A stretch of 64,000 nt of DNA, taken from Enterobacteria phage RB18. The stretch is from sequence record NC_054906.1; one strand, given 5' to 3'. Every line of letters starts with the position of its first letter. Position 1 is the first letter of the stretch. Under the pieces are notes generated by a model. The model was not told the DNA's origin. It ran no database searches and saw only the letters and a list, made by a program, of their open reading frames with translations. Shown in pieces: positions 50,652-55,259 of this stretch. The position numbers were made by a program, and so were the translations under genes.

Positions 50652-53600
50652 ATGGCTACTTTAAAACAAATACAATTTAAAAGAAGCAAAATCGCAGGTG
50701 CACGTCCTGCTGCTTCAGTATTAGCCGAAGGTGAATTGGCTATAAACTTAAAAGATAGAACAATTTTTACTAAAGATGATTCAGGAAATATCATTGACTT
50801 AAGCATTTCTGCTGGTGGTAATATCAGTGGAAATATCACTCAAACTGGTGATTATACACAGACTGGAAAATTTAATTTAATTGGTCCGCAAATTGTAGCA
50901 AGCGGTGGATATATTGAGTTTAATTATCGTACTACTGGAAGTGGGGCTTGGTCCGGTCAACATACTGCGAAAGCTCCAATTTTTGTAGATTTAAGCTCAG
51001 CTACTTCCACATCTGAATATAATCCTATAATTAAACAGCGCTTTAAAGATGGAACTTTTTCATTAGGTACTTTAGTTTCTGAAGGTTCGTTGAAGATTCA
51101 TTATATCAATGAATCTGGCGATTCGAAATATTGGACGTTTCGACGTGACGGCGGATTTACTGTTGACGGTGGAGGTTTAGGAGTATCAGGAGGTAGTATA
51201 ACTACATCTGGAAATATTGCAGCTCTCGGAAATATTACTTCGCCTCAGATTAATACTAAAAATATTATTTTAGATACAAAAGCATTTGGACAATACGATT
51301 CGCAATCATTAGTTCAATATGTTTATCCTGGAACAGGTGAAGAAAATGGTATAAACTATCTTCGTAAAGTTCGAGCTAAATCAGGCGGAACCATTTACCA
51401 TGAAATCGCTTCAGCTCAAACCGGTAAAAATGATGAAATTTCTTGGTGGACCGGAAATACACTTACTACTAAATTAATGGGTCTTCGTAATGATGGCGCA
51501 ATGGTATTACGTCGTTCACTTGCTATTGGCACAATTACCACTGACGAAAATACTAACAACTATGGTTCTCCTACTCCAATGGGAGAAAGATATATTGCTT
51601 TGGGCGATGCTGCCACTGGTTTAAAATACATTAAGCAGGGTGTTTATGATTTAGTAGGTAATTGGAATTCTGTTGCTTCTATTACTCCTGATAGTTTCCG
51701 TAGTACTCGTAAAGCGTTATTTGGACGTTCAGAAGACCAAGGCGGAACCTGGACAATGCCTGGAACGAACGCTGCCTTTTTATCAGTTCAAACACAGGCT
51801 GATGAAAACACTGCTGGAGACGGCCAGACGCATATTGGCTATAACTCAGGCGGAAAAATGAACCACTATTTCCGTGGTAAAGGCAAAACTAATATTAATA
51901 CTCAGGAAGGTATGGAAGTTAATCCGGGTATTTTGAAATTGGTAACTGGCTCTAATAATGTAATGTTTTATGCTGATGGCGGTATTACATCTGTTAAGCA
52001 GCTTTCAATATATAATGGCATATATTTAGCAGCTAATAATTCTACTGCTGGGCTAACATTCGCTCCAACTACTACAATTGATGGTACTAAGCAAATTTTG
52101 TGGGAAGGCGGTACTCGCGCTGGGCAGAATAAAAGCTATGTAACTGTTAAAGCATGGGGTAATTCATTTAACGCATCTGGCGATCGTAATCGTGAAACGG
52201 TTTTTGAAGTAGCTGATGGACAAGGATATTATTTTTATTCACAGCGTGTGGCTCCAAGTGGCTCTGAAACTACTGGGCCTGTTGTAACCCAGTTCAATGG
52301 ACAAGTTAATGCTAGAGGAAGTATTATTACTGACGGAAGTTTTAAAGTTAATGGATTAAGCACTTTAGTCGGTAATGTTACTATGTCTAATGGTTTGTTT
52401 GTCCAAGGTGGTTCTTCTATTACTGGACAGGTAAAAATTGGTGGAACGGCTGATGCATTAAGAATTTGGAATGCTGAATACGGTGCTATTTTCCGTCGCT
52501 CAGAAAGTAATCTTTATATTATCCCGACTCCTAAAGATGCTGGAGAATCGGGCGGTATAAGTAATCTTAGACCATTGATAATAGAACTGAACACTGGCAC
52601 AGTTAAAATGTCGCATGATGTTCATTTAGGAGATTCTGGATCTGGTACAGGACTTTTACAAGTAAGTAATAGTCTTAAAACTATTAAAATGATATGTCCA
52701 GTAACTATTAATTCACCTAATGCAGTGCTTACTCTAGATTCTCCTTCATCTTCTGCTAATTATTTACTGGGTTCTAGAGATGGAACTAGATCGTGGTATG
52801 TTGGTCTTGGTGGCGCTGGAAATGATTTATCGCTTTATAGTCAATATAATGGACACGGTCTTGTTATAAGCAATAATTTAGTATCAATCACTAAACCTCT
52901 TAAAGTCGGAAATGCACAATTAGGAACTGACGGTAATATTACCAATGGTTCAGGAAACTTTGCCAACTTAAATACCACGTTAAATCGTAAAGTTAATTCT
53001 GGATTTATTACTTATGGAGCAACCTCTGGATGGTATAAGTTTGCAACAGTAACAATGCCACAATCCACTTCAACAGTCTTCTTTAAAATAGTTGGAGGTT
53101 CTGGATTTAATAGCGGATTATTCACCCAATGTAATATTGCTGAAATTGTTTTACGTACTGGTAATGAAAGACCTTCTGACTTAAATGCTGTATTATACAC
53201 AAGAACAACTGGAATGTATAGCGCAGCATTTAGAAATATTGCAGTTAACAATGTCTCTGGAAATACATATGACATTTATGTTTATGCTGGAACATATTGT
53301 AATCAACTAGTTTGTGAATGGTCATGTACCGAAAATGCTACTGTTAGCGTTATTGGTATTAACTCATCTACCCAATCACCTGTGGATGCTCTTCCAGATA
53401 CAGCAGTTGATGGGCAAGTTGCTAATGTTCTTAATAACTTGGTTGATCGCGGTAAAGTTAAGCGTTATGAAGCCGATTCTGAAATAGCTATTAATAGCCC
53501 AACCGGTATTCGTATCAGAAGCAATGGCGATAAAACTGGTTCTGTTGCTACAATGCTACGAAATGATGGCGGCAGTTTTTATATTCTGTTTACAGATAAA

Positions 53601-54437
53601 AATGCCACCGATGGCGCAGCAACTGTTAATGGTGATTGGAATAGTAAACGTCCTTTCGCAATTAACTTAACAACCGGCGAAGTGATGATGAATAATGGCA
53701 TAGCTGTTCGCAGCGCTGCTTTATTCTATAATAGCATAAACGTCAAAGATAATGGTTCTATTAACTTTGATAAATCAGGTGCTAACCCGAGAAATATGAG
53801 AATATTTCATGCTGGCGATGCTTCTCGCGGTAACCGCATTGAAATTGCAGATGAAACTAACTATATTGCTTACTTTGAAAAGGCTCCAGGTGGAGCTAAC
53901 CGCTTTGTAGTAAATAATGCTACTGTAGCTGGTGTTAACCAAATGAATTCATTTGGTATTAATATCAATAACGCACTTGGTGGAAATAGTATAGCATTTG
54001 GTGATAGCGATACTGGTATTAAGCAAAATGGCGATGGATTATTAGACATATATGCGAACAGCGTACAAGTGTTCCGTTTCCAAAACGGTGATTTGTACTC
54101 ATACAAAAATATAAATGCTCCAAACGTTTATATTCGTTCTGATATTCGTTTAAAATCCAACTTTAAGCCTATCGAAAATGCACTTGATAAAGTTGAAAAA
54201 CTTAACGGTGTCATTTACGATAAAGCTGAATACATCGGTGGAGAGGCAATTGAAACTGAAGCGGGTATTGTGGCTCAAACGTTACAAGACGTTTTACCAG
54301 AAGCTGTCCGCGAAACAGAAGATAGCAAGGGTAATAAAATACTCACTGTTTCTTCTCAAGCCCAGATTGCTCTTCTGGTTGAAGCTGTGAAAACACTTTC
54401 TTCTCGTGTAAAAGAACTTGAATCTAAACTTATGTAA
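50652..54437 (+). CDS. 37: Long tail fibre distal subunit gp37, T2-type with C-terminal auto-processing chaperone domain
   Basis: 1261 aa; C-terminal SDIRLK...VKELESKL resembles intramolecular chaperone/peptidase S74 module. Confidence 0.85.
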   Translation: [1261 protein letters not shown]

Positions 54438-54439
54438 AA

Positions 54440-54462: not shown

Positions 54463-54467
54463 TTTTA

Positions 54468-55259
54468 ATGGCAATTGTAGGTGTTCCTGGCTGGATTGGC
54501 GAATCTGCCGTGAATGAAACTGGACAACGTTGGATGGATGCTGCAATGAAAGCAGTTCGTGTTTCAGTTCCTGGTTGGATGAGCTCAATGGCTGGACAAT
54601 CTAAAGAAGTATATTACAGCATTGGTGCTAGCAATTCTTATAATAAAGATACACTAATAAATTGGATAAAAGCCCAAGGAAGTACTCCTGTTGTTATTAC
54701 TATTACAGGAAATATTGTTTCTCAATCTACTGGTGTTCCATGCTTAGATTTTCCTAGCTCATTAACTAATGCATATGTTACCTTAAATATTAATAGTGGG
54801 GTTCATGTATTAGGTCGGGGAGGAAATGGCGGAAGTAACTCTGCTGGTGGAGCAGGAGGAACTGCAATAAATAACGGAATTGGAACTCGTTTAAGAATAA
54901 ACAATAATGGTATTATTGGTGGCGGTGGCGGTGGCGGCGCAGGTGCTAGATACAATCCTTTCCCTCAAATGGATATGAAATTTGGTGGCGGCGGAGGTCG
55001 TCCATTTGGCGCAGCTGGCGCAGCAGGAGGTGGCGCAGCTGCAGCATCTGCTGGTACAATTTCTGCTCCCGGTAAAGGCACTGTTTCTGGGGTTCACCAT
55101 GGAGGAGATGGTGGAGATTTAGGAGCTGCTGGCAAATCTTCATATATTCAAGGTGGTACTGGAGGAACTGTTCACTCGGGTGGTGCTGCGGGTAAAGCTG
55201 TTACTGGTAATGCTCCAACTTGGACTAAAGTTGGCACAATATATGGTTCAAGAGTATAA
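54468..55259 (+). CDS. 38: Tail fibre tip adhesin gp38 (T2-type, glycine-rich)
   Basis: 263 aa with poly-Gly blocks (GGGGGGGAGA, GGGGGRPFGAAGAAGGG) separated by short variable segments. Confidence 0.8.
   Translation: MAIVGVPGWIGESAVNETGQRWMDAAMKAVRVSVPGWMSSMAGQSKEVYYSIGASNSYNKDTLINWIKAQGSTPVVITITGNIVSQSTGVPCLDFPSSLTNAYVTLNINSGVHVLGRGGNGGSNSAGGAGGTAINNGIGTRLRINNNGIIGGGGGGGAGARYNPFPQMDMKFGGGGGRPFGAAGAAGGGAAAASAGTISAPGKGTVSGVHHGGDGGDLGAAGKSSYIQGGTGGTVHSGGAAGKAVTGNAPTWTKVGTIYGSRV
54918..54940 (+). repeat. GGY-codon simple repeat encoding poly-glycine in gp38
   Basis: ggtggcggtggcggtggcggcgc. Confidence 0.7.

Follow-up and report, generated by a model that had tools for sequence, protein, structure and literature searches.

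In phages T2, K3, Ox2, S16 and PP01 the receptor is bound by gp38, a protein carried on the virion's long tail fibre at its tip (PMC6851490 and PMC3157838, among others). Tryptophans of gp38 plug into the tip of gp37 (PMC6851490), and the cleaved gp37 tip provides the docking surface (PMC7917993, PMC6851490). Cleavage of S16 gp37 at DLNVS^SDRRIKK removes 113 residues and so exposes the surface for gp38 (PMC7917993), and proteolytic processing of T2 gp37 has also been published (Drexler et al. 1986, as cited in PMC3157838). T4 differs, in that its gp37 is itself the receptor-binding protein and has no chaperone domain of the SDxRxK kind, and a gp38 of 183 residues occupies the slot between gene 37 and t. 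Here we describe genes 37 and 38 of Enterobacteria phage RB18, at positions 50,652 to 55,259 of a window of 64,000 nucleotides (the whole stretch of DNA analysed; sequence record NC_054906.1). We conclude with high confidence that the two genes make up the module which, in a T2-type Tequatrovirus, encodes the distal long tail fibre and the adhesin, with a gp38 that likely binds Tsx and with glycine runs that are structural and do not act as a slippage switch. The two open reading frames, of 1261 and 263 codons, lie exactly where an earlier reading of the region, made from the sequence alone, had placed them, and their products are residue for residue those of RB18 by exact look-up (YP_010067130.1 and YP_010067131.1; genome MH553563, 166,677 bp). 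The module is thus already known: it is in the public record as RB18, and the families to which it belongs have been studied genetically for decades and have solved structures.

Two described systems are most useful for comparison. T2 (MH751506) shares with RB18 the gene order, the cleavage motif, the chaperone tail and nearly identical first ~50 residues of gp38; its gp37 is longer (1341 against 1261 residues), the middle of gp37 and the specificity domain of gp38 are only ~50–60% identical between the two phages, and T2 uses FadL/OmpF whereas the adhesin subtype to which RB18 belongs uses Tsx. S16 (6F45) likewise has a gp38 of three domains, including a polyglycine-II sandwich and tryptophan prongs, and the same gp37 chaperone domain and cleavage motif, at about 42% identity. 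It differs in the length of the chaperone domain (113 residues against 99 in RB18), in the bond that is cut (S^S, against a predicted R^S in RB18) and in its receptor, which is Salmonella OmpC.

The gp37 tip and the gp38 adhesin

The C-terminal end of gp37 has the hallmarks of a processing domain. Peptidase_S74 ('chaperone of endosialidase', PF13884) matches residues 1163–1220 over profile positions 1–58 of 58, at 56.5 bits where the cut-off is 22, and the domain so matched extends to the last residue, 1261. It starts at S1163-D-I-R-L-K1168, an SDxRxK motif containing an S-x4-K dyad, which leaves 99 residues from Ser1163 to the end. This tail is identical to the T2 tail at 98 of 99 positions, and the SDIRLK site and its flanks are identical in T2, Shfl2, Bas39 and Bas43; by the same motif comparison, SDxRxK is absent from T4 gp37. 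The last ~155 residues of gp37 align with S16 gp37 of the tip complex (6F45_A; E 6e-13), reaching into the chaperone tail, and there is a weaker match of the C-terminus to the autoproteolytic domain of MYRF (7DC3). A self-cleaving C-terminal domain is therefore well supported by homology, and the sequence-only reading, which had gp37 end in an SDIRLK region belonging to an intramolecular chaperone and autoprotease, holds on both counts: the motif begins at residue 1163, and the family match, the dyad and the near-identity to the T2 tail identify the domain.

Because the stretch NVYIR^SDIRLKS parallels the cleavage site of S16 and that predicted in gp37 of the Yersinia fPS phages (DVYIR^SDGRLKI; PMC7917993), we predict that RB18 gp37 is cut between R1162 and S1163 to release 99 residues, with Ser1163 as the nucleophile and Lys1168 as its partner. 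A Ser/Lys mechanism has been described for T5 pb1, where the catalytic pair is Ser1264/Lys1269 (PMC4690869). It should be said on the other side that the cut at R1162/S1163 is placed by homology, and that no report of RB18 gp37 processing was found in the literature searched.

To judge from its sequence, gp38 is a T2/S16-type adhesin over its full length. Pfam GP38 (PF05268) matches with 234.3 bits (E 1.8e-69, cut-off 25) over profile positions 1–218 of 218 and Gp38_N (PF21721) with 64.7 bits (E 7e-18, cut-off 25) over positions 1–40 of 40, and the protein falls in phrog_2056 (E 7e-102). It aligns full length with the gp38 proteins of S16 (6F45_D, E 1e-47) and PP01 (9V85, E 3e-31). An AlphaFold2 model made with 46 homologues has a predicted local distance difference test (pLDDT) score of 88 and a predicted template modelling (pTM) score of 0.81; when compared with the PDB by Foldseek it finds 6F45_D (template modelling, or TM, score 0.75/0.79) and 9V85 (TM score 0.82 normalised by target) and no other fold match, the remaining entries being no better than E = 2.7. 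The tryptophans W9, W22 and W37 align with those of S16, and W9 and W22 are invariant in the 46 homologues.

When aligned with the reference adhesins of T2, T6, Ox2 (X05675) and M1, the N-terminal ~100 residues of gp38 are T2-like, and conserved glycine blocks then alternate with variable loops; glycine makes up 23% of the protein and 33% of residues 110–263. The proposal that gp38 consists of polyglycine blocks alternating with variable segments, in the architecture of a tip adhesin, thus agrees with the Pfam matches, the structures and the alignment, and the alignment of variable loops suggested as a check on it (with T2, T6 and Ox2) gives the same picture.

By analogy with these systems, assembly may proceed as follows. 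The gp37 subunits would trimerise with the help of their own C-terminal 99 residues, whose role as intramolecular chaperone is suggested by family membership. Once the trimer has folded, Ser1163, activated by Lys1168, would cut the R1162–S1163 bond and the chaperone would leave, as has been shown for T2 and S16. The NVYIR tip would then be exposed, and one gp38 monomer would dock to it through an N-terminal helical bundle bearing the three tryptophans, as in the S16 structure. The C-terminal half of gp38 would fold as a polyglycine-II sandwich of glycine-rich motifs, with hypervariable loops contacting an outer-membrane protein.

The receptor of RB18

The specificity domain of RB18 gp38 is 100% identical to that of Shigella phage Shfl2, 97.5% identical to those of AV114, AV115 and AV109, and 96.9% identical to that of TadeuszReichstein (Bas43); the subtype so defined comprises 36 phage records, with identities in the domain of 93% or more. 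Several of these phages have been characterised. AV114 and AV115 depend on Tsx (PMC10844046), and Bas43 needs Tsx and the deep core of lipopolysaccharide (LPS) by knock-out plating (PMC8594841, supplement), Tsx also ranking first for this phage in another, independent screen by random barcode transposon sequencing (bioRxiv 10.64898/2026.04.02.716166, supplement). Gene swaps furthermore map porin specificity to gp38 from the hypervariable loop HVS2 onward (bioRxiv 10.64898/2026.04.02.716166). Because the specificity domain is nearly identical to those of Tsx-dependent phages and specificity maps to this part of gp38, we propose that the nucleoside channel Tsx is quite probably the primary receptor of RB18. 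The outer-membrane protein contacted by the loops would most likely be Tsx, as suggested by the 97–100% identical adhesin domains of Tsx-requiring phages. That 'T2-like' adhesins are able to bind Tsx has already been remarked (PMC10844046). The OmpA/OmpF/Tsx-type specificity proposed in the sequence-only reading can be narrowed accordingly: gp38 would set the receptor, and the range given need not stay so wide, the closest characterised adhesins all using Tsx.

The gp38 proteins of AV114 and AV115 (Mosigvirus) and of Bas43 (Tequatrovirus) have a specificity domain of the same length as that of RB18, whereas their gp37 bodies are very different, with 40–80% DNA identity over most of gp37. T6 and Bas39, which are Tsx users with the classical Tsx adhesin subtype, share with RB18 the PFPQM core in HVS1, but HVS2 to HVS4 are unrelated in sequence, and T6 gp38 is 54% identical overall. 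Over the whole of gp37 Bas39 is the closest phage (92.4% of amino acids), yet its gp38 diverges from that of RB18 from position 54776 on. On these comparisons the RB18/Shfl2 type would constitute a second Tsx-binding subtype, differing from the T6/Bas39 adhesin everywhere except the PFPQM core in HVS1, and its domain might have evolved independently for Tsx binding, sharing only the PFPQM loop with T6.

Several points weigh against Tsx and leave some room, albeit little, for a module as described here whose primary receptor is instead OmpA, OmpF, FadL, OmpC or LPS. Single substitutions in gp38 loops can switch the receptor, as in RB68, where Q206L changes OmpF to OmpW, and similarly for PST and T6; RB18 differs from the Tsx-tested Bas43 at five positions of the specificity domain (N163H, K171I, H211Y, D214N and Q228K), and Tsx is for these two reasons probable and not certain. 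In addition AV108, whose adhesin is related and similar to that of AV114, uses OmpA (PMC10844046), the N-terminal two-fifths of gp38 resemble T2, a FadL/OmpF user, and no published receptor for RB18 was found in Trojet 2011, the rest of the literature searched or the supplements of the 2026 receptor-screen preprint. Against a receptor other than Tsx, however, the specificity region is 96.9–97.5% identical to those of three phages shown in three independent studies to require Tsx, the specificity domain has only about 50–60% DNA identity to T2, and AV108 is not among the 36 records that match the domain at 93% or more. We consider Tsx to be the better supported receptor, and a different primary receptor to be unlikely.

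Glycine runs and the nature of gp38

Two runs of glycine codons in gp38 had been noted at 54918–54940 and 54976–55000 as GGY-codon repeats prone to slippage. The runs exist, although their true bounds are 54918–54938 and 54984–54998, and the second includes a GGA codon and so is not purely GGY. Tandem Repeats Finder reports a single short array, 54918–54937 (20 nt; period 6; 3.3 copies; score 40). In alignment with S16 gp38 the first run falls on the long central polyglycine-II helix (glycine-rich motif 3, or GRM3), residues 151–158, and in S16 this helix 3 (151-GGGGGGGG-158) has a backbone saturated with hydrogen bonds (PMC6851490). The glycine-rich motifs have been described as 'strictly conserved', and T6 deleted for GRM2, GRM3 or GRM4 gave no viable phage among 220 recombinants (PMC3157838).

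The lengths of the runs vary little. The Gly/Ala block that follows the NxGxI motif has 10 residues in 65 of 92 homologues, 9 in 22 and fewer in 5, and there are five glycines before RPFG in 77 of the 92; the residues G176, G177, R178 and P179 are invariant in the homologue alignment. HVS1, unlike the conserved glycine blocks, ranges from 7 to 16 residues across the same 92 proteins. Of 15 full-length members read from the 90% cluster, 14 have GGGGGGGAGA and one AGGGGGGAGA; every one of the 15 has a Gly block of 10 residues and GGGGG as the second run, and the differences in length, of 2 residues, are at the N-terminus. The 480-nt specificity domain is of the same length and free of insertions and deletions in all 36 phage genomes of the RB18-type subtype, which span three genera, Tequatrovirus, Mosigvirus and Krischvirus. 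In its DNA RB18 alone has the perfect (GGTGGC)3: Shfl2, Bas43, Bas39 and T2 match it in the number of glycine codons, but with GGT, GGC and GGA usage scrambled. This is how a tract looks when purifying selection holds the length of the protein and synonymous changes drift freely; a maintained repeat tract would look otherwise. We conclude that the glycine runs encode structural helices of fixed length and do not form a slippage switch.

The contrary proposal, that slippage at these runs generates host-range variants as at a contingency tract, can draw on the perfect (GGTGGC)x3.3 repeat of 20 nt in RB18, on the 9-residue or shorter blocks of the more distant homologues (22 and 5 of 92), and on one metagenomic relative in which GGT GGT GGC GGT, that is 4 Gly, replaces the seven glycine codons of the first run, making it 9 nt shorter. 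This last sequence also stands against our own reading. It may reflect genuine, if rare, variation or a fault of assembly; hence either an in-frame change of length or a mis-assembly has occurred at least once. We nevertheless regard a contingency tract as very improbable: the 36 genomes of the subtype show no indel across three genera, the block is of constant length in all 15 full-length cluster members read, the hexamer repeat is synonymously broken in Shfl2, Bas43, Bas39 and T2, the first run aligns with the hydrogen-bond-saturated S16 helix (PMC6851490), deletions of glycine-rich motifs are not viable in T6 (PMC3157838), and the receptor switches in the literature cited map to loop substitutions or to cassette exchange. 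The suggestion in the sequence-only reading that slippage drives host-range variation is thus not borne out. A weaker version, in which the (GGTGGC)3 tract slips in frame occasionally, alters the length of the central helix and re-spaces the loops to give low-frequency host-range variants, with the 4-Gly relative as a natural example, is likewise hardly to be expected. In all, four comparisons speak against a slippage tract (homologue lengths, the 90% cluster, the five-phage DNA alignment and the 36 genomes), with the single metagenomic exception.

The exceptional relative (P0003/L008; L008:1501-2277 on ENA metagenome contig ERZ27280761 k141_243190) encodes a gp38 of 89% identity. It is situated among small open reading frames, away from gp37 and t, in a displaced arrangement like that of Krischvirus.

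Two antisense open reading frames on the minus strand, 54891–55100 (69 aa) and 54946–55143 (65 aa), fall inside the stretch of gp38 rich in Gly and Ala. In all likelihood both are artefacts of composition, the sense strand being GGN/GCN-rich here and the local GC content 0.48 against ~0.37 around it.

Finally, a T4-like identity for gp38, that of an assembly chaperone absent from the virion, with gp37 itself binding the receptor, is favoured by the labels 'distal long tail fiber assembly catalyst' or 'tail assembly protein' on close homologues in several database records, but has virtually no chance of being correct, since gp38 aligns with the 183-residue T4 protein only at BLASTP E=13 over 19 residues, that is, without similarity notwithstanding the shared slot, and matches Pfam GP38 and the S16 and PP01 adhesin structures over its full length, while gp37 lacks a T4-type C-terminal head domain and has its own intramolecular chaperone. 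The BLASTP result rules out the T4-type chaperone, and the labels are a carry-over from T4 gene-38 nomenclature that is wrong for T2-type gp38. The sequence-only reading thus survives both conditions named as able to refute it, a gp38 that aligns with the T4 protein and a gp37 devoid of the processing domain.

Layout, transcription signals and mosaicism of the locus

The features of the region are collected in the table below. Gene 38 is directly between gene 37 and the holin gene t, the stop codon of gp37 ending at 54437 and the ATG codons of gp38 and t being at 54468 and 55292. The backbone is that of a Tequatrovirus, which over 20 kb is ~97% identical to teqsoen, ESh33 and others.

Table. 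Coordinates in the window of the fibre and adhesin module of RB18 and of features around it.
Feature	Position	Strand	Basis or remarks
T4-type late-promoter motif TATAAATA upstream of gp34	44880-44887		exact motif search
gp34	44922-48791		gene order gp34-35-36-37-38-t (canonical T-even)
gp35	48800-49915		T-even tail-fibre order
GC-rich UUCG-tetraloop hairpin in gp35/gp36 gap, then T-rich stretch	49919-49940
T4-type late-promoter motif TATAAATA upstream of gene 36	49947..49954	+	exact motif search
gp36, distal hinge connector, joins gp37 to proximal half-fibre	49978..50643	+	Pfam Phage_T4_gp36 E 1e-40; phrog_1425
gp37, long tail fibre distal subunit, 1261 aa	50652..54437	+	open reading frame; phrog_1699 full length; RB18 YP_010067130.1
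gp37 codons ~26-375	50728-51777		96-100% to T2
gp37 body	51928-54027		87-99% to Bas39; 45-95% to Shfl2, Bas43, T2
gp34-like C-terminal trimerisation segment, gp37 residues 507-644	52170..52583	+	Pfam PF21446 E 3.5e-10; PDB 4UXE/5NXF gp34 E ~3e-13
gp37_trimer region, gp37 residues 692-764	52725..52943	+	Pfam PF20744 E 8e-10; PDB 4A0T/4A0U tail fibre protein E 2e-7
Distal tip, gp37 residues 1105-1162, ending NVYIR	53964..54137	+	aligns to S16 gp37 in 6F45
gp37 tip, chaperone domain and gp38 N-terminal domain	54028-54777		conserved, 93-100% in four of five phages
Peptidase_S74 intramolecular chaperone/autoprotease (putative), gp37 residues 1163-1261	54138..54434	+	Pfam PF13884
Hairpin GAGGGC-UUCG-GCCCUC in gp37/gp38 gap	54439..54456	+	terminator-like scan; RNA fold -13.4 kcal/mol, z -2.1
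gp38 adhesin, 263 aa	54468..55259	+	open reading frame; Pfam GP38 and Gp38_N; RB18 YP_010067131.1
gp38 N-terminal attachment domain, residues 1-42, with Trp9, Trp22, Trp37	54468..54593	+	Pfam Gp38_N; S16 alignment
gp38 receptor-specificity domain, residues 104-263, glycine-rich motifs and hypervariable loops	54777..55256	+	alignment with T2, T6, Ox2, M1
gp38 specificity cassette	54777-~55180		matches Shfl2, Bas43; sharp divergence from Bas39
Gly run 1, GGT GGC GGT GGC GGT GGC GGC, gp38 residues 151-157	54918..54938	+	sequence
HVS1 loop RYNPFPQMDMKF, gp38 residues 161-172	54948..54983	+	alignment; PFPQM core common to T6 and Bas39 Tsx-binding adhesins
Gly run 2, GGT GGC GGC GGA GGT, gp38 residues 173-177 of GGGGGRPFG motif	54984..54998	+	sequence
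Holin t, conserved downstream neighbour closing the module	55292..55948	+	Pfam Phage_holin_T E 2e-117

The family phrog_1699 ('long tail fiber protein distal subunit') covers gp37 from end to end. At the 90% level gp37 is alone in its cluster, and the next best gp37 proteins are 92.4% identical in amino acids (FriedrichMiescher/Bas39 and teqhal). Residues 466–657 of gp37 (52047–52622) are homologous to the C-terminal region of gp34 (44922–48791); in this internal repeat the string WGNQFGGGSDTTRSTVFEVGDETSNHFYSQR was set against a stretch of gp37 for comparison. Such a repeat between two fibre genes could support recombination. We also note that residues 58–126 of gp35 match Pfam ILEI (interleukin-like EMT inducer / FAM3-type, PF15711) with 36 bits (E 1e-8; cut-off 27), an unexpected label for a tail-fibre hinge protein.

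Genes 36, 37 and 38 are probably transcribed as one late transcript, because the motif TATAAATA is present upstream of gene 36 and an exact search finds none before gp37 or gp38; its function as a promoter would follow from the T4 late-promoter consensus. Over the whole window the motif occurs 12 times against 8.9 +/- 2.6 by chance, which is not above chance, so that only its placement is suggestive. A scan of the region for sigma-70 promoters gives 28 sites where 20.3 +/- 4.5 are expected, an excess that carries no information. The hairpin between genes 37 and 38 is followed by the ribosome-binding site of gp38 (AAGGA) and a T-run, and the record of K3 (X04747) annotates its equivalent as a stem-loop and potential terminator. 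Both this hairpin and that between genes 35 and 36 are probably stable CUUCGG hairpins of the T4 type, acting in RNA stability or partial termination.

A sliding map of DNA identity between the RB18 module and those of relatives, including T2, Bas39, Shfl2 and Bas43, resolves it into segments of different affinity. Within the single gene 37 the T2-like N-terminal third stands out sharply as a mosaic patch, the parts of gp37 that flank it being closest to Bas39/teqhal. In the conserved block that spans the end of gene 37 and the start of gene 38, T2 remains at 98–99% up to ~54480 and diverges from ~54600 (87%, then 62%). The specificity cassette is swapped relative to Bas39, with junctions near 54776 and 55180, and at GGAAGK and in the conserved C-terminal end RB18 and Bas39 are alike again. 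Such a patchwork is what recombination near conserved motifs, as described earlier, leaves behind (Tétart et al. 1998, Trojet et al. 2011; PMC3157838). Diversity at this locus has two sources, point substitutions in the loops and recombination that swaps cassettes on either side of the conserved docking block, and this block, in which the tip of gp37 and its chaperone domain are joined to the N-terminus of gp38, is the homology by which shafts and adhesin cassettes are reassorted.

As a discovery the module has little value, being a textbook T2-type receptor-recognition unit of a phage already in GenBank. Its value lies in annotation, as Tsx becomes predictable as the primary receptor of RB18 and the misleading 'assembly catalyst' and 'tail assembly protein' labels on homologues are corrected. 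The conserved docking block also shows, to the benefit of host-range engineering, how shafts of the fibre and cassettes of the adhesin can pass between Tequatrovirus, Mosigvirus and Krischvirus phages.

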